A stretch of 64,000 nt of DNA from Bdellovibrionota bacterium (GTDB lineage: Bacteria > Bdellovibrionota > UBA1018 > CAIPTA01 > JAALKR01), in contig CBDBMJ010000001.1 in the NCBI GenBank assembly GCA_965207455.1, positions 1,760,001-1,824,000 on the forward strand, given 5' to 3'. The notes beneath the pieces were generated by a model that saw nothing but the letters and a program-made list of their open reading frames with translations, was not told the origin of the DNA and made no database searches. The translations under genes were made by a program, and so were the position numbers. Positions 16,851 through 64,000 of the stretch are shown in pieces (positions within the stretch are counted from its first letter, which is position 1; every line of letters begins with the position of its first letter).

Positions 16851-17906
16851 TTATTTTTCTAAAATTTCTTTTATAGTATCATCTGGAATATCAAATTTTG
16901 TTTTTAATCTGTCTGACAGTTCATTCATTATACTTTTAACTCTAGCTGGATTTTTATTCTTATGCTCTCTAATATAATCATTTACCTCTGAGATTATTTT
17001 TTTCGGCAAATTATTGCTAATATTGATACCCACCAAACCTGTAAATACCGAATCAAAAGTATCTTTAATTCTTCTTGCGTTTGGCGAGAAAGAAATATAA
17101 TTATACAAAAAGTCAGGTCTCATGCAACAACCTTTTTTATACTTTTCGTCCAAAACATTTAAGGCAGTCTTTTGAGTAAGGGTATCCTTTGATAGCCACC
17201 ATGTCTTATAACCAAAAACATTTTTGTTAGATATCTCATTATTTTTTTCTCTCCTATGATATATTTCTATAAATAATTTTGAGTCATGCCTAGCTTGATT
17301 TTCCCGCCTATTATTTCCTATTAATTTCTCACAAAGAGTTTCTACGCTCTCATTTTCTTTCTCATCAAATTCAGGTTTAGTGCTCAAATATAAAATACCA
17401 AACGTCTCTTCAAGCCAAGTGATTATATCCTCTTTAGCATTCTCCAAAGATGGGCTGACAAACTCATCAAGATATTCTTCAAAGCTTCTAACCTTCCCGT
17501 CGCACTTGGCATAGAAATATGCGCGTATTAAAATATGATCGATATACTGTATAAGCATCTTATTCTCAAGAAAAATATCTTCACAATCAAAGTATTCTTC
17601 TTTATATTCTTTCTTTATATACACTAAATGATTTATCAACTCATTTAGAATACCTTCATTAATGAGCAGCTCAACACCCAGTGTATTGGACTGAGATAAA
17701 AGGTTTGAATGTCTTCGACTTTCCTCTTCCAAAAAACATTCGGATAAAACAGGCACTAGAATTGATGTGCATACATATAATTTTAACTCAGAAGCCATTC
17801 TTTGAAAATAAGCGGACACTTTAGGATCGCATTGAAGCATAAATAGCATTAAATAAGTCTTTGAAAGCTTAGTAAGAAAAAGCTTTTGTCGCTTGCTGCC
17901 CTTATA
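16851..17906 (-). pseudogene. 3' part of a hypothetical gene, 5' end abutting IS21
   Basis: About 340 codons of AT-rich protein-like ORF; apparent N-terminus in the ORF track is translated IS21 repeats; no matching 5' half beyond the IS. Confidence 0.6.
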
Positions 17907-17923
17907 TGTCCGATAGCATGAAA

Positions 17924-18101
17924 GTATACCAGGGGATTCGCACTGAGGTATACCACCAGATTCGCATTGAGGTATACCACCGGATTCGCACGGTGGTATA
18001 CCACTAGATTCGCACGCCGGTATACCACCGGATTCGCACGCCGGTATACCACCGGATTCGCACGCCGGTATACCACCAGATTCGCACGGTAGTATACCAC
18101 T
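17924..18101 (+). repeat. Seven tandem 24-bp units plus a partial unit (gtataccaccggattcgcacgccg) in the IS21 left end
   Basis: Directly visible; no spacers. Confidence 0.95.
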
Positions 18102-18173
18102 TGCGACCGGATGGGCCATAATCTCAAAAAATGTAAGATGCTCCCTTTAACTAAATTTTTAAAGGAGGTTTTT

Positions 18174-19640
18174 ATGAAAGTGAGAAGGAAGTCTATGGCA
18201 ATGCAGGAACAAATTATTTATTTAAGAGGTAAGGGTCTATCACAAAGAGAGATCGCTAGGAACCTAAGAATCAACCGGAAGACAGTCTGTGCCTATTGGA
18301 ATAGCAAGGCTGCGATGCCTAGTGAACAGGCACCAGAGTGGACAAAGCAGTTTGACTGGGAATACATCGGCGATGAAATTCAGAAAAGAGTTCCGATAAA
18401 GACACTCTATGAGGAGTTATCCGTGACGAAAAAGATGCCTTCTTATTCGTCCTTTTGTCGGTTCTGCTCTAAGAAAGTAGGTGGCAAAAAATGCGATATA
18501 ACGATCAGAGTGCCAAGGAGTCCGGGTGAGAGTGTAGAGACCGATTACTCTGGAAAAAGCATTCCTATACTTGTTCCCTCCACAGGAGAGCTGGAGTCCA
18601 CTGAGCTGTTTGTCGGAACCATGTCCTATAGTGGTAAGATATATGCTGAATTTACTCCATCCCAAAAAATGGAGGATTGGATTGCATCCCACAATAGGAT
18701 GTTTACCTTCTTTGGTGGAGTCCCTAAATTTGAAATTACCGACAATTTAAAGGCTGCTGTGACAAAGACTCATCGCTATGATCCAGAAATTAATCGAACC
18801 TTTAACGATATGGCAAAACACTATGGACTGGCTATTGATCCAGCAGATAAAGCGTCTCCCAAGCAAAAGCCCAATGTGGAAAAGGCAGTGCATGTTATTC
18901 AACAAGGCTTTTTTCCAAGGATAAGAAATAAAACATTCACCTCTATCCATCAACTGAATAAATGTCTATGGGAGTACTTAAAGGAAAAAAACGCTGCGGT
19001 AATGAAGGATCGTGGTCGGTCAAGAGATGCTTTCTTTGAAGAGGAAAAGCAACTTCTATCGCCCCTGCCACCTGACTCCTACGATATTTACTACTGGAAG
19101 AAAGCCAAGGTTCACCCCGATTGTTGCTTTCAGTTGCAGAAGAACTTTTATTCTGTACCTTATCGGTATGCGGGTAAAGAGGTAGAACTAAAATTCAACT
19201 CTAAAATGGTTTATGTATTTTTTGAGACCGAGCAAATCAAATGCCATCGTATATCTCTCCCTGGAAAAGGGTATTTTATTATTGATGGCAAGGACTATCC
19301 AGAAAAGAAGTTTGTTCATACAAACAATCAAATCCAATATGTTCTGGAGAAAGCAAGGCGTATTGGTGAGAATACTCATGGGCTAATAGAGTTGCTTATA
19401 GATATGCCTCGCTTTCCTCTGAAAAATCTCAGGAAGATGCAAGGAATTATTGATTTGAGAAAGAAATATTCATCGGAGGCGATGGAGTATGCAAGCAAGT
19501 CCGCACTGGAACTAAGGAAATATAATTACAACTTCATTAAGTCATGCGCAAAAAATTATCGAGAGCCAGAGAATGATCAGAGACATCTCCCACCCAACAG
19601 ACAATCCGATTTTACCTGCTTACAAGGAGAACAACTATGA
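18174..19640 (+). CDS. istA: IS21 transposase
   Basis: HTH SQREIAR, ETDY, FFGGVP...DNLKAAV, PKQKPNVE, YSVPY; RBS aaggagg. Confidence 0.95.
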   Translation: MKVRRKSMAMQEQIIYLRGKGLSQREIARNLRINRKTVCAYWNSKAAMPSEQAPEWTKQFDWEYIGDEIQKRVPIKTLYEELSVTKKMPSYSSFCRFCSKKVGGKKCDITIRVPRSPGESVETDYSGKSIPILVPSTGELESTELFVGTMSYSGKIYAEFTPSQKMEDWIASHNRMFTFFGGVPKFEITDNLKAAVTKTHRYDPEINRTFNDMAKHYGLAIDPADKASPKQKPNVEKAVHVIQQGFFPRIRNKTFTSIHQLNKCLWEYLKEKNAAVMKDRGRSRDAFFEEEKQLLSPLPPDSYDIYYWKKAKVHPDCCFQLQKNFYSVPYRYAGKEVELKFNSKMVYVFFETEQIKCHRISLPGKGYFIIDGKDYPEKKFVHTNNQIQYVLEKARRIGENTHGLIELLIDMPRFPLKNLRKMQGIIDLRKKYSSEAMEYASKSALELRKYNYNFIKSCAKNYREPENDQRHLPPNRQSDFTCLQGEQL

Positions 19641-23029: not shown

Positions 23030-23345
23030 CCTCGCTCCCTTTGCGCAGCGACTCTATCGGTATAACTACACAGGGAAAATGTCGGCACAGGTGCGTCAGA
23101 AGAGGTGTGTTTGATTTCTAGTAAAGTGGGGGTTTTCAGGGCAGTGTGTACAGTTATTTTCTATCTCTGGGGAAGGCTATGTTCTGCCTCTAGCGGTCTC
23201 TTTTCTTTTTTGAGGGTTACGGGGGGTGTGGGTATCTTTTTAAGGTGGGGGGGTGTGTTTACGTTAGGAGATACAGCACGGCTGGTCTCTCTTGCAGTTG
23301 GGTTACATTGTTTTATTGATTGGGTTTGGGGCAGGGGTTTTTCTT
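23030..23345. repeat. Intergenic block, copy 1 (copy 2 at 35765-36070)
   Basis: gggaaaatgtcggcacag..cgtcaga..ttctagtaaag..ctctagcggtc..tttttgaggg shared. Confidence 0.85.
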
Positions 23346-23379
23346 TAGGTGGATGGAGTTCTAGTTCTCATGAGGCTCT

Positions 23380-35537: not shown

Positions 35538-36090
35538 ATTATTTTCACTCCTCCTAAAAAGCAACTGTATCTCTTATTAACTAAATTTGTAAAATTTCAG
35601 AACTTAGAGAATCATAATAAATACTATACCCACAAATAAGGCTACCTTTCCACCCCTGTAAGGATTTGTTAGAGTTTACTTATAAATGCTGCTTGCAGGC
35701 TCTCCGAATCGCATAAAGCAGCCATCAAGACGGCACCACCACCAGCAGCAGCCCCAGCCACCAACCCCTCGCCCCTTTGCACAGCGATTTTGCCGGTGTA
35801 ACTACCAGGGGAAAATGTCGGCACAGACGCGTCAGAGGGGAGTTTAATTTCTAGTAAAGCGGGGGTTTTCAGGACAGCGTTTATAGCTGTCTTCTGCCTC
35901 TCAGAAGGCTGTGCCCTGCCTCTAGCGGTCTATTTTCTTTTTTGAGGGCTACGGGGTGTGGATATCTTTTTAAGATAGGATGAGGTGTTTGCGTTCAGGA
36001 GATGTGGCCGGCTGGTCTACCCTGTAGTTGAGTTACATTGTTTTACTGATGGTTCTGGGCAGGTTCTTTCTTTCTGTATTTGGTTTGGTG

Positions 36091-36547
36091 GTCATTCCTC
36101 ATACTTAGGAGTTGGAGTTCCATTTGATGGTATTTGGATATTAGGTTTCGTTTCATAGTAGTTGGAGTTCAATTTCAGGGTTTGAGGAGTTAGTATTGTT
36201 ATTTTGGGTTTTGGGCGGTGTTATGTTTCCGCTACAAGTCAAGTTCAATCATTCGTTTTATGGGTATTGAGGGAGTTTAAATTTACGGAGGGCATCACTT
36301 TCTCGCTCCCACCTTTCACAAAGACAAAGTTACTTCTTCTCACTGATATGCCTAAGGGTGTGTGTTTGTTCTTTAGGGAGGTGTGGTTGTGTTTCTTTTA
36401 TCAGGCTCAGTGGTTTCATTCTTGTTTGGATCCTGGGAATCATTCCGACACTCCCCAAGACCACACCCCCGCTTCTTTCCTGATTAGGAGTTAAGCGTTT
36501 AGCGTGTGTGGTATGTTTTGCTCCCTTCGACGACTGTTTTATTGACT
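36091..36547. repeat. Near-identical 457-bp direct repeat (copy at 51004-51460)
   Basis: Ungapped alignment at offset 14913 with very few mismatches; includes a sulfatase-end copy and a B core. Confidence 0.95.
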
Positions 36548-50087: not shown

Positions 50088-51329
50088 AGTACAAGGGCGG
50101 TCAAAAGACTAAGTTACTATTCTTCAGATGAAATTGTTTCATATACATCATCAAATTTATGTTGAAGCTTACCAGTACGTTTTAAAATTTCATCTTTATA
50201 CTTCTTGCTTCTCAGTAATGGCTCAAAATAGAATGAATATTCCGTTTCTATATTGACCTCTTGGTTGTACCTTGGACCGACAGAATCAATTCTTTTTTTA
50301 TTAAGCTTATATAATTCATTCAAATCACTCATTCAATCTCCAAATTAATCATATTGCTAGTGTCCATGACTCTCAAACACTTTCCCCGATATCTTCAAAA
50401 ATCTACCCTCTAACTACTTGACCCTAATCTTAGCCCAAAAATAGCTCTTTAGTCTTTTTCCAATTAGCCTACGGGTTGCTGTTGAGGCACCATGTTCGGC
50501 GCACTATTTGTTGTGTGGCTTTCATTTAGTTGAAAGAGTAAGACATCGACAACACACCAACCCCGACCAATCCCTACCCCCCCTTCACCCACATCAGGTT
50601 TATAAAGCCCGGCTGGGGGGGGGCACTGGCACTGTGATGAGAGCTACCGGCCCTCTAATGGGATTACCGGGCATTGATGGGAGCCACTGGCATTCTGATG
50701 AGGTCTACTAACGCAGGGGCATTGAAGTTTCTTGTTTAAGGGTTATTTAAGGGATTTGTAGTACAGGGTGTTTATACAGCAGCTCCGGTAGCAGCGACCT
50801 TGACCACCACACACTAATCCCAACCCGGTACCAGCATTAGCAATCCCGGCACCACCAGCACCAATCCCGGCGGCAACAACACCATCAGCAGCCCCGGCCC
50901 GGCCCGCCCCTCAACCCATTCCGGCCCCTAGAAGCCCGCAGTATTTCTTTGATCCATCACCGCCACAAGTCATGTTTATTTATTTCCTATTTGGATCCTA
51001 GGGGTCATTCCTCATACTTAGGAGTTGTAGTTCCATTTGATGGTATTTGGATATTAGGTTTCGTTTCATAGTAGTTGGAGTTCAATTTCAGGGTTTGAGG
51101 AGTTAGTATTGTTATTTTGGGTTTTGGGCGGTGTTATGTTTCCGCTACAAGTCAAGTTCAATCATTCGTTTTATGGGTATTGAGGGAGTTTAAATTTACG
51201 GAGGGCATCACTTTCTCGCTCCCACCTTTCACAAAGACAAAGTTACTTCTTCTCACTGATATGCCTAAGGGTGTGTGTTTGTTCTTTAGGGAGGTGTGGT
51301 TGTGTTTCTTTTATCAGGCTCTGTGGTTT

Positions 51330-56394: not shown

Positions 56395-56979
56395 ATGAAA
56401 ATATTGAAAACAAACAAGGGTTTTACCCTAATTGAATTAATGATCGTTGTGGCAATTATCGGAATTTTGGCTGCCATTGCGGTACCAAACTTCCAAAGTT
56501 ATCAAGCGAAAAGTAGACAGTCAGAGGCTAAAATCTCTCTAGCAACTGTTCATAGCCAAGAGATCGCTTTTAGCGCAGAGTTCGGCGGCTATGTCACTGC
56601 ACTAGACGCTATTGGTTATATACCAAGCACTTCCGGTGCAGCTGTTGCAATAGCCAGTACTAGAGGATCGCAGTACTATACCGTTGGTTGGACTGGTGAT
56701 GCCGCACCTAATTCTATGCCTGCCAATGCTCCATACTCATTCCTTACAATCCGTTATTGGAGAAACTCAGGGACTAATTCAGGAGATGATGGTGCTACAG
56801 GGTGCAAAAATGGTGCTGTTCTTAGCGATGCATTATCGGCAATCAACACTGCAAAAGTGAACGGAATAACCCAAGCCTTTACTGTCGGTGCTGCAGGAAA
56901 ACCCGGAACTAACAATGCTTGCGATGAGTGGACTATAAATGAAAATAAAGTTCTTGCCAACAACGTACGTAACCTATAA
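56395..56979 (+). CDS. pilA: Type IV major pilin
   Basis: [24 protein letters not shown] prepilin site; [12 protein letters not shown]-terminal Cys pair. Confidence 0.95.
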
Positions 56980-57006: not shown

Positions 57007-57056
57007 AAAAGCCAGAACACTCGAAAGCGAAACGCTTCCCTGTTCTGGCTTTTTTT
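57007..57056 (+). terminator. Intrinsic terminator after pilA
   Basis: aaaagccagaaca ... tgttctggcttttttt stem plus T-tract. Confidence 0.8.
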
Positions 57057-57101
57057 ATTCTGTCACCCCCATAACACATACAGTGTATCCTATAAACACA
57101 A

Positions 57102-57809
57102 ATGAAAATCATCAAACACTCAAAAACCTACCGTGTAAACTTCCTCCTCTTTCTTCTCGCCCTAATCACCGTCAGCCTATACCAAGAACAACGCCCCCAC
57201 TTTCCCCTAAAAGATAAAACAACCTTTACCTTCAACGAAGGCTTCCCCTCCTTTTCCCCAGAATCCATACGCCTCTTAAGTTTTGGCTACCGCTTTGTCT
57301 GGAGTAGCCTCCTCTGGATCCGCTTCCTCCGCCACACACCTCCCAAAAGCATGGGATCCGCAGAAGTAAGCTGGATCTTCGTGGACCTAAACGCCATCTC
57401 CGTAATCGATCAAGACTTTTCCCCCGTCTATACCCACGGCGCACTCTTCCTCTCCGTCATCACCGAAGATAAAAACGGAGCAAGACTCCTCCTAGAAAAA
57501 GGATCGAAAAAATACCCCAACTCCCTGCGAATACATTCTGCCCTAGCCTACCACTACCTCTTTGAACTCAAGGACCGCAAAAAAGCAGCCCAACAATACC
57601 AAATAGCCTCCCGGATTCCAGGAGCACCAGACTACTACGCCCTCCTTGCCGCAACCACCATGCAAAAAGAAGGGAACACAATGGCAGCTATTGCCTTCTT
57701 ACAAGATATGCGAGAAAATGCAAAAGACCCCAAAGTACGAAAAAAGCTCCTACAGAAAATACACAACCTAGAAATGGGCTCAACCGAAAGAAGCACCTAT
57801 GAAAAATAA
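57102..57809 (+). CDS. PilG-like TPR accessory protein
   Basis: FGY....SLLWIR, LLEKG...P, AY.Y.FEL.D..KAA..Y..A; located between pilA and the ABC ATPase. Confidence 0.7.
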   Translation: MKIIKHSKTYRVNFLLFLLALITVSLYQEQRPHFPLKDKTTFTFNEGFPSFSPESIRLLSFGYRFVWSSLLWIRFLRHTPPKSMGSAEVSWIFVDLNAISVIDQDFSPVYTHGALFLSVITEDKNGARLLLEKGSKKYPNSLRIHSALAYHYLFELKDRKKAAQQYQIASRIPGAPDYYALLAATTMQKEGNTMAAIAFLQDMRENAKDPKVRKKLLQKIHNLEMGSTERSTYEK

Positions 57810-58719
57810 ACCAGCCCTAGAATTTATCAATGTCTCCAAAACATACCGCTCCGGATTCCTCGGCGAAAAAAAACAATCCCTAAAAAACTTGACCCTCTCC
57901 GTACCCACCGGCTCAGTCTTTGGCTTCCTCGGCGCTAACGGCGCTGGAAAAACAACGACCATAAAAATCACCCTCGGCCTTCAAAAACCCACGTCAGGCG
58001 AAGTAATCGTCCTCGGAAAAAGCAACTCTAGCAATAAAGCCAAAGCCCTTATCGGCTACCTACCCGAACGACCCACCTTTCATCTGGATCTTACTGGCAA
58101 CGAATTCCTAAACTTCCACCGTAACCTCTTCGGCAACCGCATCCAAAATAAACCCCAACTCTCTAACTCCCATCTGCTAGCTCTTGTTGGTATCCCACAA
58201 ACCGCCTCCACACTCCTGCGAGAATTCTCCAAAGGCATGCTCCAACGAATCGGCATCGCCCAAGCCCTCATCAATTCTCCGGATTTGGTCATTTTGGACG
58301 AACCCATGAGCGGACTCGACCCCATCGGAAGACGCGACGTACGCGAAATCATCTCCCAACTCGCACACGAAGGCAAAACCATCTTCTTTAGCAGCCACAT
58401 CCTAAACGACGTCGAAAGCCTCTGCGACCAAATCGCCTTCCTCCAATCCGGCGAACTCAAAGTCCACGGAAAAATAAACGACATCCTGAAAAAAAGATCG
58501 TCAAAAGAAATCATCTTCAAAAACATCTCAGCCCACACCATTAAAAACTCCCCCATCCTACAAAACTCCACCCAATCCGGCGACTCCTGGACCCTACTCC
58601 TCCACAACCCCGAACACACCCAATCCACCCTCGAAACCATCTGGCAACAAAAAGGGGAACTCATCTCCGTAACCAACCAACAAATCAGCCTAGAAGAAGA
58701 ACTCTTCCCATCACTATGA
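57799..58719 (+). CDS. pilH: ABC transporter ATPase (PilH-like)
   Basis: GANGAGKTT, FSKGMLQR, LDEPMSGLDP, SSH. Confidence 0.85.
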   Translation: MKNKPALEFINVSKTYRSGFLGEKKQSLKNLTLSVPTGSVFGFLGANGAGKTTTIKITLGLQKPTSGEVIVLGKSNSSNKAKALIGYLPERPTFHLDLTGNEFLNFHRNLFGNRIQNKPQLSNSHLLALVGIPQTASTLLREFSKGMLQRIGIAQALINSPDLVILDEPMSGLDPIGRRDVREIISQLAHEGKTIFFSSHILNDVESLCDQIAFLQSGELKVHGKINDILKKRSSKEIIFKNISAHTIKNSPILQNSTQSGDSWTLLLHNPEHTQSTLETIWQQKGELISVTNQQISLEEELFPSL

Positions 58720-59495
58720 AAAAATACCTACAATCCGCTACCCTAACCATCGCCCTCACCACCCTCAGAGGCTTCACCCGAGACCGCATCTTCTATGCCG
58801 TCCTCCTCGTCGCCCTACTCCTCATCGCCTTCTCCTACTCCCTCGCCGGACTCACCTTCATCGGCTCCTATAAAATACTCATGGACTTCGGCTTCACCGC
58901 CATCTCCCTCTGCGGAATCCTCATCTCCATCTTCGTAGGCATCATCTCCGTATCCAAAGAAATCGAAAACAAAACCATCTACACCATTCTCGCTAAACCC
59001 GTCCACCGCTCCCAATACATTCTGGGCAAATACCTCGGCTGTAGCCTCGTAGTCCTCATCGCCCACCTAATAATGTCCCTCTCCCTCCTAACCGTCATCT
59101 GGATCATCGGCATAAAAACCTCCACCGGCCTCTACCCCTGCTTCTACCTCATGACACTCGAAAGCCTTCTTATACTCTCCATCGCCCTGTTCTCCTCCAT
59201 CTTCTCCTCCAGTGTTCTTGCCACCTGCCTCACCCTTTTGTTATTCCTTATTGGAAGGAGTGCTTACTTCTTTCATTCTGCCTCAGAAAAAGCTGAAGGA
59301 CTCATGCGCTATGTTTTTCGGATTCTCTACGACATTCTCCCTAACCTCGAACGCTTTAATCTCCGAGAAATGGCTGCCTACTCCAAGCCCTACCCCGACA
59401 CCCTTCTCCTCGACAGCACCATCTACGCCCTCGCCTACACCACCCTCTTTCTCACCCTAAGCACCATTCTTTTCATCCGACGGGACATGCCATGA
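58716..59495 (+). CDS. pilI: ABC-2 permease (PilI-like)
   Basis: EIENKTIYTILAKPV.R..YILGKYLG; six TM helices; ends F.RRD. Confidence 0.8.
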   Translation: MKKYLQSATLTIALTTLRGFTRDRIFYAVLLVALLLIAFSYSLAGLTFIGSYKILMDFGFTAISLCGILISIFVGIISVSKEIENKTIYTILAKPVHRSQYILGKYLGCSLVVLIAHLIMSLSLLTVIWIIGIKTSTGLYPCFYLMTLESLLILSIALFSSIFSSSVLATCLTLLLFLIGRSAYFFHSASEKAEGLMRYVFRILYDILPNLERFNLREMAAYSKPYPDTLLLDSTIYALAYTTLFLTLSTILFIRRDMP

Positions 59496-60283
59496 TCGAC
59501 CCCCAAACCATCATCCAAATCGCCTTCATCACCTTTGGTTTCATCATCGGCAGCTTCCTCAACGTCTGCATCTCCCGCATGCCCAAAGAAAAAAGCGTGG
59601 TCTTCCCCCCCAGCGCCTGCATGACTTGCCAAAAAAACATCCCTTGGTACTGCAACATCCCCATTCTCAGCTACCTCTTCCTCCGCGGCCGCTGCCTCTA
59701 CTGCAAATCCCGCATCCCCTTCCGCTACCTGCTAGTCGAATGCATCACCCCCGCCCTATTCCTCCTCTGCCTGCCCTACCCCTATATCCTCTGGCCCTTT
59801 TACGTTTACTTTCTCTCCTCCCTCGTCATTGCCACCTTTATCGACCTCGAACACTGGATCATCCCCGACAAGATCACCCTCCCAGGTATCCCCATAGGAA
59901 TCCTAAGCTCCCTCGTCCACCCCTACCCTTTTATTTTGGATTCTGTGCTTGGCATGATATTTGGTGGCGGATCTCTCCTAGTCATTGGCATGATCTACGA
60001 GAAGATGAAAAAAACAGAGGGCATTGGTGGTGGCGACATAAAATTTCTCGCCATGGGCGGCGCCTTCCTCGGCTTCAAAGGCATCATCCTCACGCTTCTT
60101 ATTGCTTCCATCACTGGCATGATTATTGGACTCATCACCATGATCAAAACAGGAAAAGGCGGCAAAACTGCCATCCCCTTCGGTCCCTTCCTCTCCGCTG
60201 GAATGCTCATCACCTTTATCTGGGGCACCCAAATCTGGGACTGGTACCTCGCCCTCACCAACCCTCAATCCCTCTTCCAATAA
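59492..60283 (+). CDS. pilD: Prepilin peptidase
   Basis: GSFLNV.I.R.P, two CxxC, IDL...IIPD, G.GGGD.K, IPFGPF. Confidence 0.95.
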   Translation: MIDPQTIIQIAFITFGFIIGSFLNVCISRMPKEKSVVFPPSACMTCQKNIPWYCNIPILSYLFLRGRCLYCKSRIPFRYLLVECITPALFLLCLPYPYILWPFYVYFLSSLVIATFIDLEHWIIPDKITLPGIPIGILSSLVHPYPFILDSVLGMIFGGGSLLVIGMIYEKMKKTEGIGGGDIKFLAMGGAFLGFKGIILTLLIASITGMIIGLITMIKTGKGGKTAIPFGPFLSAGMLITFIWGTQIWDWYLALTNPQSLFQ

Positions 60284-60336
60284 CACACCCAACAAACCCA
60301 CGGCGCAATGCCGCACGCAACAAGCTGGACACGTCA

Positions 60337-61725
60337 TTAAAATTTTCTAGAAAATTTCCTAAACGATTTAACCAGCTCATAAGTAAGAAACGCGTTTGCT
60401 ACTATCTGCAAAAAATTCCAGAAACCAAACTCACCTACAGGCAATTTAATGGGAATCACTAAACGACCAAACAGGTCAAGACAATCCCAAAAACCAACAC
60501 AACACTCAAAACGAAACATATGGATAAAAAGAAATACAATATTAATAGCTAATTGCCAAACAAAAACCCTAAAAAAAGCTGTACCAAAATAACTAAAGAG
60601 CTTCTCAATAGATAAAGTAAATTTATCCTGAAGATTGCCACCCGTCTTCCCCAGTTCATGGAGATATTTATCATGCTCTTTCGTATGAAACATCACGGCA
60701 GATATCGTATCATTTTGTTTTATGGCGAAGTGCTTTAATTGCAAGAAAGTTTCTCTGCTAAATGCATTCTCGCCTTCAATATTTATTAATCCTCTTTTTT
60801 CGTTTATATATTTAAGTGTGTTTTCTTCATCAAGAGATTCATTCCCTCCAGTAGAAAAATCCGTTCCTTCGATAACGCAATTATCTATCTGAAGTACAAA
60901 TTCTTTAGTAAAAAAAATATCTCCTAAAAAAATATTTTTTATATTTCCCGACAACTTAAAATGACTCCTAAAAAAAGAAAGGGTGAAATCCAATCGCTCA
61001 CGAAACTCACTCATTGTAGTGTCTAATTTATTAAAAATACATTCCCTGAAATTACAAGACCCGAGGAATTGCGTATTAAAAAATCTTGCATCATCTCGAA
61101 AATAAGATTTATAAAATCCAGCATTTTCTGCAAATCTTGTTCTCTCAAAAGAAACTTTCGATAAAAATATAGTCTCAACAAAATCTACTTCTTTTTCAAA
61201 CTCTACCTTTTTAAAAAAAGAATCTCCTGTAATAATAGTATTACTAACGCTCACTGGTTTCAGAAATTTTTTATCAGACAAATAAATGCCACCTATAATA
61301 ATGAAATTATCAAAACATACCTTTCTTGAAATTTTCGCACTATCCAATATAATATCTCCCACAATAATGCAATTATCTAAAGGCACATCCATTGAAATAA
61401 GTTCTTCAACATCAGACTGTCCTATATGAACGAATTTTTTCTTAGAATCTAGCTCTTCTTCCATGATAATAAATATTTTTTCAGAAAGGATTCCTTTATA
61501 ATTAAAAATTTCTTTTATATGTGCGCTTATTTCAATCACCTCATATTCAACACCATTAAAAACTACTTCTTGCGAGTTCAAGGAAGGATCGGAATACTTG
61601 TTTTTACTCTCATCTTCATAACGAAACTCTAACTTACCACTCGATTTATCAAAAGTAACATTGGTTAATCCCTCTCTATCAACCTTTGATATTCCGTATT
61701 TTACCTCGCTCGTTTCTTGTTCCAT
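60337..61725 (-). CDS. Pentapeptide-repeat protein with C-terminal TM segments
   Basis: F..V.F....DF..T.F repeats; ETF.QLK; S.FGT..R, hydrophobic tail. Confidence 0.75.
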   Translation of the reverse strand: MEQETSEVKYGISKVDREGLTNVTFDKSSGKLEFRYEDESKNKYSDPSLNSQEVVFNGVEYEVIEISAHIKEIFNYKGILSEKIFIIMEEELDSKKKFVHIGQSDVEELISMDVPLDNCIIVGDIILDSAKISRKVCFDNFIIIGGIYLSDKKFLKPVSVSNTIITGDSFFKKVEFEKEVDFVETIFLSKVSFERTRFAENAGFYKSYFRDDARFFNTQFLGSCNFRECIFNKLDTTMSEFRERLDFTLSFFRSHFKLSGNIKNIFLGDIFFTKEFVLQIDNCVIEGTDFSTGGNESLDEENTLKYINEKRGLINIEGENAFSRETFLQLKHFAIKQNDTISAVMFHTKEHDKYLHELGKTGGNLQDKFTLSIEKLFSYFGTAFFRVFVWQLAINIVFLFIHMFRFECCVGFWDCLDLFGRLVIPIKLPVGEFGFWNFLQIVANAFLTYELVKSFRKFSRKF

Positions 61726-62052
61726 AAAATATATCTTACAAAATACTATTGTAAAAAACAATTCTTTATTCATCTATCACCTTAAAAAAAGAGTAAGTGT
61801 TTCTCACAAAGAAACCATTAAGTTCTTGGAAAACTAAATATCTATTGTCCGATTATCAGACATCGCACCAACAGGAACACGCCCCAGAGCAGACCTCATA
61901 ATCCCTCCAGCAACAAAGCCTACCTCTATTCACACCTCTCACAACACACAGACAAACCTCGGAACTCTTCTTGACTAACCCATGGCTTTGGTTTATGTTA
62001 AAACATAATCAATCGGCTAATTAACAGAAGGCGTAAGAGAGGGAACTGAAGA

Positions 62053-62223
62053 ATGAGAAAAAAAAATAACAGCGCAACGAAAAAAGAAGACCCTGAAGAA
62101 GTTCAGAGAAGCCTTGAACAGCTCATTATTGACATAAAAAAGAAGCGACCCAAGTTCCGAAAATTCTCAAAAGAGCAGCGAGAATTCTTTATAAGGGAAG
62201 CACTAGAAGAGTATGATTCGTAG
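62053..62223 (+). CDS. Small 56-aa hypothetical protein
   Basis: MRKKNNSATKKEDPEEVQRSLEQLIIDIKKKRPKFRKFSKEQREFFIREALEEYDS, 8 bp upstream of the next ORF. Confidence 0.5.
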   Translation: MRKKNNSATKKEDPEEVQRSLEQLIIDIKKKRPKFRKFSKEQREFFIREALEEYDS

Positions 62224-62231
62224 TACCCATT

Positions 62232-63101
62232 GTGTTAGCAAGTAAATTAAAAAGAAATAAGAAATACAGTCTTTCTCAAGGAATGATCTTTGAGATACCC
62301 AGTTTAAAACTTGATTTTGATAAAGCAAAAAAAACCATTAAAGAGCTTTATCCCGAGGCAAGTCTTGATAATGTAAAGTATGGACTCATATTAACACAAT
62401 CATGTGACCTCGTTCATGATAAGTTTTTTGAGCAACAAGGTGGAACTCTAGATAAAGATGAAAAAAATAACTACAAATATCGACTTCCAAAAATTCCTCA
62501 CATTACATTTTGCTTGTTGGAGCCAATAAATTCTTATATTTCAGAATTTTTAAGTAAAAACGAATCAAAATTTCTATTCAAAATAGAAGACCCTGTTCCC
62601 ACTAACAAAACCACTAATGTCCTTTCCTCGAGCAAAGCATTAAAACTAGTTTTGAGAGAATTTGGCAGGTTCTTTCAAAATAATCACCCTTGGGCATTTT
62701 TCATCACAATTCAATCAAAGGATAGAAAAGAATACTACTTTGTTAACTTAACAAAAATTCTCCCTCTAAGAATAATTCACTATAGCTCAATCCTCCAGAA
62801 CTCTAAATTTCAGTTAACAAATGAATTTTCTAATAAATTAGCATGGAAATTGGCGACCCTATATGGGAGAATCGGGACTAAGGATTATTCAAGAAAAGCA
62901 ATCACAGAAATCATCAAGGATATTCTTGAAATCTCCCAAAAAGAGTTTTCTAGCTTAACCGATGATTCTATAGACATAGAACCTTTAGACTTTGATGCTC
63001 TTAAAAAAAATCTAGAAAGAGAACGTAACTTAAAAAAAAGAAATGAAATCTTACAAGATCTGCTAGAGGAACACTCCATAACAAATATGAAAGGCATATA
63101 A
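62232..63101 (+). CDS. Hypothetical protein with QGxI...LILTQSCDL and YGRIG motifs
   Basis: Motifs of a widespread uncharacterised family. Confidence 0.7.
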   Translation: MLASKLKRNKKYSLSQGMIFEIPSLKLDFDKAKKTIKELYPEASLDNVKYGLILTQSCDLVHDKFFEQQGGTLDKDEKNNYKYRLPKIPHITFCLLEPINSYISEFLSKNESKFLFKIEDPVPTNKTTNVLSSSKALKLVLREFGRFFQNNHPWAFFITIQSKDRKEYYFVNLTKILPLRIIHYSSILQNSKFQLTNEFSNKLAWKLATLYGRIGTKDYSRKAITEIIKDILEISQKEFSSLTDDSIDIEPLDFDALKKNLERERNLKKRNEILQDLLEEHSITNMKGI

Positions 63102-63134
63102 GACCGAAGAACTCATACACTACATTTTTCGGCT

Positions 63135-63648
63135 CATCTACACCATTCTCGCCAAACCCGTCCACCGCTCCCAATACATTCTGGGCAAATACCTCGGCTG
63201 TAGCCTCGTTGTCCTCATCGCTCACCTAATAATGTCCCTCTCCCTCCTAACCGTCATCTGGATCATCGGCATAAAAACCTCCACCGGCCTCTACCCCTGC
63301 TTCTACCTCATGACACTCGAAAGCCTTCTTATACTCTCCATTGCCCTGTTCTCCTCTATCTTTTCCTCCAGCGTCCTCGCCACTTGCCTCACCCTTCTAC
63401 TATTCCTCATCGGAAGAAGCGCCTACTTCTTTCACTCCGCCTCTGAAAAAGCCGAAGGATTCATGCGCTATGTTTTTCGGATTCTCTACGACATTCTCCC
63501 TAACCTCGAACGCTTTAATCTCCGAGAAATGGCGGCCAAACCCTACCCCGACACCCTTCTCCTCGACAGCACCATCTACGCCCTCGCCTACACCACCCTC
63601 TTTCTCACCCTAAGCACCATTCTTTTCATCCGACGGGACATGCCATGA
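63135..63648 (+). pseudogene. 5'-truncated duplicate of pilI
   Basis: Matches 58976-59495 with synonymous changes and a 6-bp in-frame deletion. Confidence 0.92.
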
Positions 63649-64000
63649 TCGACCCCCAAACCATCATCCAAATCGCCTTCATCACCTTTGGTTTCATCAT
63701 CGGCAGCTTCCTCAACGTCTGCATCTCCCGCATGCCCAAAGAAAAAAGCGTGGTCTTCCCCCCCAGCGCCTGCATGACTTGCCAAAAAAACATCCCTTGG
63801 TACTGCAACATCCCCATTCTCAGCTACCTCTTCCTCCGCGGCCGCTGCCTCTACTGCAAATCCCGCATCCCCTTCCGCTACCTGCTAGTCGAATGCATCA
63901 CCCCCGCCCTATTCCTCCTCTGCCTGCCCTACCCCTATATCCTCTGGCCCTTTTACGTTTACTTTCTCTCCTCCCTCGTCATTGCCACCTTTATCGACCT
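63645..64000 (+). CDS. pilD: Second pilD copy (runs off window)
   Basis: Appears identical to 59492-59847. Confidence 0.9.
   Translation, partial: MIDPQTIIQIAFITFGFIIGSFLNVCISRMPKEKSVVFPPSACMTCQKNIPWYCNIPILSYLFLRGRCLYCKSRIPFRYLLVECITPALFLLCLPYPYILWPFYVYFLSSLVIATFID

Follow-up and report, generated by a model that had tools for sequence, protein, structure and literature searches.

How does a single operon come to be so rich in A and C on one strand that it stands far above the rest of its genome? The question is raised by a pilus operon in a 64,000-nt stretch of DNA (the window; C1:1760001-1824000, on contig C1 of genome G000) from an uncultured, Bdellovibrio-like bacterium, whose genome of 2.38 Mb lies in 3 contigs with 40% G+C. 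The skewed genes pilG, pilH, pilI and pilD lie in the window and a candidate fifth gene of the operon, orf194, lies past its end. Window-scale coordinates run on past 64000 for this downstream DNA, and coordinates on the L101 scale are related to them by a constant offset (L101 8649 = window-scale 64649). We confirm here that the one-strand bias of these genes is real, extreme and local.

Strength and extent of the skew

Third codon positions were scored as mk3 = (A3+C3-G3-T3)/n across the 1,940 open reading frames (ORFs) returned by a crude ORF caller, which together cover 87% of the genome. The genome-wide mean is -0.03 (standard deviation (SD) 0.15; 99.5th percentile 0.42). Seven of the eight highest-scoring ORFs lie at the pil locus, 3.5-5.8 SD over the genome mean, and the sole ORF of the eight from elsewhere is a lipase-like gene (C1:1744517-1745491, minus strand, mk3 0.54). 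An earlier note, made from the letters of the window, had described the codons of pilG, pilH, pilI and pilD as ending overwhelmingly in C or A, unlike those of pilA and the AT-rich neighbours. The scores bear this out, with 0.51-0.70 for the four genes against 0.02 for pilA and -0.26 to 0.27 for the AT-rich genes that lie among and beside the skewed ones.

At silent sites of pilG, pilH, pilI, pilD and orf194, C makes up ~80-96% of pyrimidines and A 57-87% of purines. All NNY families favour C (0.68-0.93), the two-fold NNR families (Gln, Lys, Glu) favour A (0.94-0.98), and four-fold families are ranked C > A > T > G. The skew is evident without reference to reading frame: in 1-kb windows at 57-60 kb and 63-64 kb, G+C is 47-52% (window average ~35%) and GC skew is -0.37 to -0.47, and the strongest negative GC skew of the whole genome on this scale (-0.51) falls in the pil region. 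No gradient is seen along the operon, and the borders in composition are sharp and match gene ends. The genes and the untranslated segments concerned are as follows.

56395-56979, plus strand: pilA-type major pilin gene (Pfam N_methyl, E=1e-9), third-position G+C 0.34, outside the skewed block
57051-57101, plus strand: spacer between the hairpin and T-run after pilA and the start of pilG, where the A+C enrichment starts (G+T 20/51)
57102-57809, plus strand: pilG-like gene, 235 aa (Pfam TPR_14, E=4e-4, under the curated cut-off), mk3 0.63, with orthologs at the same position in relatives
57799-58719, plus strand: pilH-like ABC transporter ATPase gene, 306 aa (Pfam ABC_tran, E=1.7e-25), mk3 0.70
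58716-59495, plus strand: pilI-like ABC-2 permease gene, 259 aa (Pfam ABC2_membrane_2, E=2.6e-10), mk3 0.62
59492-60283, plus strand: pilD prepilin peptidase gene, 263 aa (Pfam A24_N_bact, E=2.5e-31; Peptidase_A24, E=6.5e-20), mk3 0.51
60284-60336, plus strand: non-coding, A+C-rich tail of pilD copy 1 (G+T 13/53), ending at the stop codon of the converging gene
60337-61773, minus strand: AT-rich inserted gene, 478 aa, pentapeptide repeats (Pfam Pentapeptide_3, E=1e-7), mk3 -0.26
62232-63101, plus strand: AT-rich inserted gene, 289 aa, no Pfam family, mk3 0.16
Window-scale 66969-67553, past the window end: orf194, 194 aa, mk3 0.86

The native operon appears to be pilA-pilG-pilH-pilI-pilD-orf194, because this gene order is conserved in relatives: a pilin gene likewise lies 5' of pilG, and in 7 related loci the gene 3' of pilD is an orf194 homolog. 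The names pilG, pilH and pilI are those of Myxococcus (M. xanthus), and both the Pfam matches and the order kept in relatives mark the genes as a putative M. xanthus-type pilG/pilH/pilI plus pilD cluster. We infer that the hairpin and T-run after pilA form a terminator, which our scan left unlisted because the loop is longer than 8 nt; the scan for promoters and terminators gave nothing decisive. Across the whole window there is no Rfam match at gathering thresholds and no tRNA gene. A rho gene is encoded in the genome.

Other pilus genes in the same genome, comprising pilB/pilT-type ATPases and minor pilin clusters, are ordinary (mk3 -0.32 to 0.25), so that being a pilus gene does not in itself entail the skew. 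An artefact of assembly or sequencing was also considered and rejected, as Logan contigs from a public short-read run (X1) contain the skewed genes and span the skew borders: one covers L101 10872-11719 (orf194 and both flanks) and a second covers L101 4257-5879 (the end of pilD to a repeat termed R, described below), each with 0 differences. Run X1 may be the source sample, and so its contigs are not independent biological support. Other extreme 200-nt windows in the genome (for example C1:1341781-1342574, 1071977 and 1509152) correspond to Gly-rich or Lys/Ala-rich repeat proteins and are a different phenomenon.

Lineage specificity and level of action

We compared the operon with orthologs (hits covering at least 60% of gene length) in a pooled tblastn of 140 fetched loci from related genomes, a species-representative collection and metagenomes. 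None of these orthologs has an mk3 equal to or above the value in this genome. The pilH orthologs of 19 related loci score -0.37 to 0.14, the pilD orthologs of 20 further loci -0.24 to 0.20, and the metagenome pilH genes of the 24 loci scored out of 41 score -0.16 to 0.13 (2 partial loci and 15 with identity of 31% or less or with short matches were left out). PilH is 54% identical to its counterpart in the nearest genome, one of the same family, and 49-55% identical to those of same-order genomes; a housekeeping aminotransferase gives 59, 56 and 51% with three of those genomes, and a second housekeeping protein intended as a calibrator of divergence had no match at E <= 1e-20. The best PilD match in the species-representative collection (58% identity) is in a metagenome-assembled genome labelled Oligoflexia, with others labelled Bdellovibrionales or Bdellovibrionota. 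The skew of the operon is thus specific to this lineage, and the operon itself was apparently inherited vertically, because identities follow taxonomy and match the housekeeping gene, and gene order is conserved.

These comparisons bear directly on the idea that the operon, or the greater part of it, was replaced by recombination from an unsampled lineage of like composition, leaving islands of ordinary composition (see below) as leftovers of the resident sequence. Such an import would account for borders that coincide with gene ends, and it would suit a hotspot of recombination and insertion with mosaic alleles, next to a pilA gene that looks exchanged in view of its ordinary composition. Yet neither phylogenetic incongruence nor a composition-matched donor was found among the donors sampled: the skew is in no qualifying ortholog, protein identities track taxonomy, and a second block 70 kb off (C1:1740267-1746827) carries a weaker skew of like kind. 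To our knowledge, moreover, no bacterial lineage has such usage genome-wide. We regard a foreign origin as distinctly unlikely.

A more familiar source of biased silent sites would be the codon bias that translation ordinarily imposes on highly expressed genes, for which the ribosomal-protein region provides the reference for native preference. This region is shifted towards C endings only mildly (mk3 0.0-0.37; C ~0.5 among pyrimidine endings), and codons ending in C or A pair by Watson-Crick rules with GNN and UNN anticodons, both of which would favour such an account. The preferred codons nevertheless differ. For Val the operon uses GTC at 0.55 and GTG at 0.07, against 0.07 and 0.40 in the ribosomal-protein region; Leu CTC is at 0.63 against 0.20, and Gly GGC at 0.61 against 0.23. 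The effect is also 2-5x that in ribosomal-protein genes, and pilA, expected to be the most highly expressed gene of the cluster, is without it.

Neither is the shift confined to silent positions. First positions, scored as mk1, are at or above the value of this genome in only 1/31 orthologs for pilG, 0/60 for pilH, 0/31 for pilI, 0/87 for pilD and 0/6 for orf194, and the mk2 of orf194 exceeds that of all 6 of its orthologs. The three non-coding flanks (57051-57101, 60284-60336 and 64437-64535) hold G+T at 58 of 203 nt, and the two pilD tails, each with a G+T fraction of 0.25, lie beneath 0.31, the 1st percentile for the genome's 380 co-oriented spacers (mean 0.49, SD 0.07). Because the preferred codons are unlike those of ribosomal-protein genes and both first positions and flanks are shifted, the force acts on nucleotides and not on codons. 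Codon bias for translation is scarcely credible as the cause.

Copies, islands and alleles

The operon has been partially duplicated, and its 3' part is interrupted by AT-rich insertions. The elements involved, together with the stretches within the skewed genes at which T and G endings are concentrated, are listed here.

58975-60284, plus strand: duplicated segment copy 1, the 3' half of pilI and the whole of pilD, 96.9% identical to copy 2 over 1,319 nt
63134-64437, plus strand, crossing the window end: duplicated segment copy 2, a pilI 3' fragment (mk3 0.55) and pilD2 (mk3 0.48), with an A+C-rich tail to ~64535
63095-63136, plus strand: degenerate pilI remnant, homolog of 59284-59325, its junction with the start of copy 2 falling on a short motif common to both
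61845-62027, plus strand: repeat R, with further copies at window-scale 64451, 70285 and 71937 (four in total)
59204-59378, plus strand: T/G island 1, of ordinary silent-site composition, containing the patch 59213-59294
59902-60034, plus strand: T/G island 2, in pilD, common to both copies
58080-58095, 58173-58190 and 58275-58296, plus strand: short T/G runs in pilH

Between the two copies lie the converging 478-aa AT-rich gene, R, a small ORF and the 289-aa AT-rich gene; 3' of copy 2 come R, ~2.4 kb of AT-rich genes, orf194 and further AT-rich genes. G or T occupies 201 of the 1,061 third positions of pilG-pilD, in clusters: the number of runs is 284 where 326.8 would be expected (z = -4.29), and as many as 15 stand within 25 codons (P = 0.0016 from 5,000 permutations). 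The islands picked out by eye in the earlier note are therefore statistically real, the one at 59210-59330 approximating to island 1 and that at 59930-59970 lying inside the larger island 2.

Aligned over 1,310 columns, the copies show a 6-nt indel and 33 substitutions, which, with copy 1 as the starting state, are T>C 13, C>T 10, G>A 3, A>G 3, A>T 2, T>G 1 and G>C 1. The transitions are grouped by direction, with 9 runs among 29 in a run test made by hand (15.3 expected). In the patch 59213-59294, 14 of the 16 differences have T/G in copy 1 and C/A in copy 2, the protein is unchanged and only 1 of the 16 is a transversion, in accordance with the synonymous T/C and G/A swaps that the earlier note had seen there. 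Outside the patch, 11 transitions run the opposite way against 2, and the stretch 59388-60048 is identical between copies.

The patch also reveals which sites have changed. G/T sites differ at 14 of 16 silent positions and at 0 of 31 replacement positions (Fisher P = 3.5e-10). Hypermutation by a deaminase acting in one step on single-stranded DNA (ssDNA) was accordingly tried and rejected, since the cluster it calls for is present but none of the replacement-type sites is hit, and a single mutagenic passage of the patch through ssDNA is thereby excluded. The patch must be either an allele imported by recombination after long divergence under selection or the product of selection site by site over many generations.

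A second allele of pilG and pilH is present in run X1, one contig showing 24 differences in 921 nt. Among the 40 differences listed (103 further rows exist), 23 run toward A+C, 10 toward G+T and 7 are neutral. Where the reference has T/G runs, this allele has C/A codons instead, two TTG-to-CTC switches and an Ala-to-Asn codon among them. Because these C/A codons fall exactly at the T/G runs, the islands are pieces of a mosaic that vary between alleles. Summed X1 contig depth is ~20 over pilA-pilD2 (L101 1-8000) and 50-90 downstream (L101 8005-20000), a step which suggests that several strains share the downstream DNA and differ at the pilus locus.

The contrast between silent and replacement sites calls for selection for nucleotide content, whether of the DNA or of its transcript, to be weighed, such that every tolerant site and the untranslated ends would have been recoded. 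An mRNA almost devoid of G and U would be unable to fold and could be an ideal Rho substrate if untranslated, or a poor substrate for a G/U-specific RNase. Several observations are as selection would have them: differences between alleles have reached saturation at silent sites, with none at replacement sites, synonymous switches such as TTG to CTC take more than one step, the skew ends at the borders of the transcription unit, and the genome has a rho gene. Moreover, a study of Rho avoidance (PMC13323073) makes selection on strand composition a real force: it describes Rho as reading CC/UC dinucleotides, reports that, across a genome, the composition of coding strands and the choice of codons can be moulded by avoidance of Rho, and notes a purine bias under runaway transcription. 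The pil operon resembles that case in having a strand constraint that works through silent sites and is tied to a transcription unit, but differs in that its RNA is C-rich and G-poor, the type that Rho prefers and the reverse of what avoidance of Rho yields, and in being operon-specific where Rho avoidance is genome-wide. Selection of this kind would also have to exceed by far that on ribosomal-protein genes (C 0.81-0.96 against ~0.5) in accessory genes of modest expected expression, the orthologs of all relatives are without the skew, and the T/G islands vary between copies and alleles, so that no position strictly needs C or A. It is, in our estimation, unlikely.

DNA at the locus that is free of protein selection was compared as well. 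The remnant left of copy 2 aligns with functional pilI over 56 nt (63095-63150 with 59284-59339; local score 36, where 300 shuffles reach at most 24) and differs from it by G>A 6, T>C 3, A>C 2, and G>T, A>T, A>G and C>A 1 each, that is, by 9 changes from G/T to A/C against 2 in reverse and 4 others. The copy of R adjoining pilD2 is likewise shifted towards A+C relative to the two distal copies (16 against 5 and 15 against 6, comparisons which are not independent of each other), while the R copies at 61845 and 71937 are nearly symmetric (31 against 24), so that only the copy next to pilD2 is shifted. Together the remnant and this R copy, small samples both, point to a directional process in DNA without protein selection.

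The remnant further indicates more than one rearrangement at the locus, because it is fused to the left of copy 2. R has a conserved core of ~30 nt within homology of up to 200 nt and borders the AT-rich modules inserted after pilD; it is likely a recombination or junction sequence of these modules. One low-depth X1 contig fuses two R copies and omits 5.8 kb including orf194, its shorter side of 22 nt making this weak. No tyrosine recombinase is encoded in the window, the nearest lying at C1:1722237. AT-rich modules also lie 3' of pilD2 and of orf194 (L101 8649-10623 and 12668-13984; window-scale 64649-66623 and 68668-69984) and look, by motif reading, as though they encode, among others, an HNH nuclease-like protein, so read from its cysteine/histidine motifs, and a 438-aa cytosine-5 DNA methyltransferase-like protein, which may be defence-type cargo. 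The pil locus is a hotspot of recombination and insertion and a mosaic of alleles.

The earlier note had linked the skew to the duplication, through repeated passage of the segment through an ssDNA or otherwise mutagenic intermediate. The closest known counterpart is the class of repeats called GRINS, described as duplicated segments longer than 500 bp that share more than 80% identity and in which absolute GC and TA skews each average >0.15 (PMC8256042). The two skews are usually correlated there, are strongest at third positions and alter amino-acid composition; GRINS are linked to gene conversion, and single-copy skewed regions are floated as possible precursors or relics. We collected all duplicated high-scoring segment pairs (HSPs) in the genome of at least 500 bp and at least 80% identity (n=609) and measured skews in 150-nt windows with a step of 30. 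The pil duplicate (1,310-1,319 nt, 96.9% identity) has a mean absolute GC skew of 0.40 in both copies, the maximum of the 609, against a median of 0.12 and a genome background of 0.158. Across the operon the skew is again strongest at third positions (mk3 0.51-0.86) and reaches amino-acid composition, with mk1 above all or all but one of the orthologs.

Mean absolute TA skew, however, is 0.14 in both copies, under the GRINS threshold of 0.15 and close to the genome background of 0.141, although single-copy pilG-pilH and orf194 reach 0.25 and 0.39. GC and TA skews are not positively correlated (r = -0.28 and -0.31 in the two copies, and -0.10 when the entire block is taken); both run in the same keto/amino direction at the third positions of pilG, pilH and orf194. 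The likeness to GRINS extends to skew inside functional genes, abrupt changes over ~100 nt and mosaics resembling gene conversion. Unlike GRINS, the skewed DNA here is mostly single-copy, it has one skew sign (C+A-rich) with neutral islands in place of G+T-rich blocks, and it belongs to a pilus accessory operon in an AT-rich Bdellovibrionota genome and not to a polyketide synthase or transposase. We therefore treat the operon as a variant of the GRINS kind, the closest known kind, and not as a member, because it is mostly single-copy and one-signed besides its departures in TA skew and correlation.

A GRINS-type cycle, in which the duplication mechanism itself makes the skew, gains from the rank of the repeat among the 609 HSPs, from the strand-coordinated cluster of 14 transitions between copies, and from the tie between intense skews, repeats and gene conversion in GRINS. 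It loses more than it gains from the rest of the locus. The skew is equal or stronger in single-copy DNA (pilG, pilH, the 5' part of pilI and orf194, with its peaks in orf194, pilH and pilG), 59388-60048 is strongly skewed and yet identical in the copies, the overall spectrum between copies is symmetric, and the cluster spares every replacement site. We consider it very improbable that duplication is the source, and the link proposed in the earlier note does not stand.

Strand context and candidate drivers

Strand asymmetry of replication is a further candidate. Where the plus strand is G-rich, plus-strand genes have an mk3 of ~-0.15 and minus-strand genes of ~+0.08, with the reverse elsewhere; lagging-strand genes thus average ~+0.08 and leading-strand genes ~-0.15. 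The dnaA gene lies on contig C3 near 386 kb, close to the skew minimum of that contig. Across 1750-1875 kb of C1 the plus strand is C-rich and of lagging type, so that the pil operon is a lagging-strand (head-on) unit. By our own count, 39 of 42 extreme 200-nt windows outside 1750-1875 kb follow the rule that the leading strand is G+T-rich, several of them due to repeat proteins.

The operon skew has the same sign as this replichore effect and ~5x its size, and neighbours on the same strand score 0.02-0.27 against 0.51-0.86, so that ordinary replication bias, one of two outcomes that the earlier note had named as refuting its proposal, does not explain the skew away. Inserted AT-rich genes on the same strand are weakly skewed (0.16-0.27), as expected if they arrived recently. 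Replication asymmetry elsewhere, including that between the heavy and light strands of vertebrate mitochondria, involves the same pair of transitions with the same sign as lagging genes here, and the codon endings of the operon resemble mitochondrial light-strand usage. Unlike such asymmetry, the skew here is limited to one operon and a weaker block 70 kb off, is ~5-fold stronger than the replichore effect and is lacking from same-strand neighbours.

The weaker block lies 14-20 kb before the window and contains five minus-strand genes with mk3 0.23-0.54, among them the lipase-like gene. A segment of ~210 kb (C1 ~1540000-1750000) is inverted in GC skew relative to its replichore, its right end near the left border of an AT-rich region of 70 kb, the one that fills the window, and is an inversion or a misjoin. 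The polarity of the lipase block fits genes formerly on the lagging strand; it is equally a mirror image around the AT-rich region, the plus strand being G+T-rich to the left and A+C-rich to the right.

It is with these results in view that we propose a lineage-specific, strand-biased substitution process acting on the native operon, which was later fragmented by AT-rich insertions and patched by recombination. We put the probability of this reading at roughly 45%. Across pilG-pilH-pilI-pilD-orf194, G-to-A and T-to-C changes on the plus strand, equivalent to C-to-T and A-to-G on the minus strand, would accumulate far faster than the reverse. Purifying selection would remove most amino-acid changes, leaving silent sites, tolerant first positions and untranslated flanks to drift to ~80% A+C. 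AT-rich insertions would afterwards have broken the operon 3' of pilD, with partial duplication, and recombination with less skewed or differently skewed alleles would have given rise to the T/G islands and the patchy differences between copies. For a skew whose extent, lineage specificity, nucleotide-level action and mosaic structure are as described above, we infer that mutation rather than selection is the driver, and prolonged exposure of or damage to the minus strand, for example as an exaggerated lagging-strand (head-on) effect at a transcription unit, would be its probable cause.

The strand-specific sense of change, T-to-C and G-to-A on the plus strand, is what deamination of the minus strand would give, as the earlier note had seen. 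Of the ssDNA deamination mechanism it proposed, the direction, the action on nucleotides and the spectrum of the remnant stand. What has fallen away is the link to duplication, the passage through ssDNA and the asymmetry of the substitution spectrum, which was to be seen between copies; a symmetric spectrum was the other outcome that the earlier note had named as refuting it.

Several points weigh against a strand-biased substitution process. Between copies the spectrum is symmetric overall, with 16 changes toward A+C against 13 toward G+T, and the pattern in the patch is equally compatible with selection for nucleotide content and with mutation plus purifying selection. At four-fold sites C (0.55-0.75) greatly exceeds A (0.16-0.29), and the TTG-to-CTC differences between alleles need G-to-C transversions; neither is expected under pure deamination. 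The transcription-linked deamination that is known strikes the coding strand, and a skew made by it would be of opposite sign. At a distance of 13-15 kb downstream, the native genes on the plus strand (window-scale 77405-79114) reach an mk3 of only 0.14, so that strand alone is insufficient and the process must be operon-specific. Finally, no close outgroup was found, the best matches having 54-58% protein identity among 41 related genomes and the species collection and at most 50% among metagenome contigs; as no relative is closer than ~58%, the substitutions are not polarised.

Strand-coordinated mutation clusters in resected DNA or ssDNA, of the kataegis kind, offer a partial parallel to the strand-biased process. 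The 14 same-sense transitions in 82 nt and the mirror-image skews around the AT-rich region resemble them. All 31 replacement sites are spared here, unlike in such clusters, and the mirror image can also be explained by the ~210-kb inversion. A more specific form of the proposal, which we advance tentatively and think rather unlikely as it stands, is that the operon is a single-copy, one-signed relative of GRINS in which one transcription unit is recoded toward A+C on its sense strand, in a locus- and strand-specific manner and much faster than background. The driver could then be recurrent exposure of the template strand, for example through head-on collision of replication with transcription or through resection that proceeds outward from breaks in the hypervariable region next to it, or a targeted deaminating activity.

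Whichever driver applies, the locus is a compact natural experiment, bringing together within 11 kb skewed native genes, unskewed recent inserts on the same strand, two diverged copies and an unconstrained remnant. The same skew runs across coding, first-position and non-coding DNA, which would let mutation and selection be separated, and it bears on the intense local skews of the GRINS type within working genes, which still await a mechanism. There are also consequences for annotation. To tools that find islands by composition, skewed regions such as this look like foreign DNA, native as they are. Stop codons require T along with G or A, and long false ORFs consequently arise in other frames of the skewed genes (59626-60462, plus strand, 278 aa; 58080-58676, minus strand, 198 aa), which could be miscalled as genes.

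The remainder of the window has features of its own. From 1400 to 54000 it is mostly an array of AT-rich minus-strand genes with several repeat families between them, including an 83-nt unit in 9 copies (1439, 2929, 4981, 5944, 16554, 23386, 24102, 36611 and 51449). The layout is like that of a cassette array, yet the window is without a tyrosine recombinase, tRNA gene or Rfam match. At 17900-18125 a 24-nt unit is repeated in 7 head-to-tail copies, just before or at the start of the ORF 18111-19640. A non-coding stretch of ~400 nt on the minus strand (35880-36300), strongly A+C-rich on that strand, which is the sense strand of its neighbours, recurs at 50976-51213 and 23172-23346; these three occurrences in the window are unrelated in sequence to R or to the pil operon.

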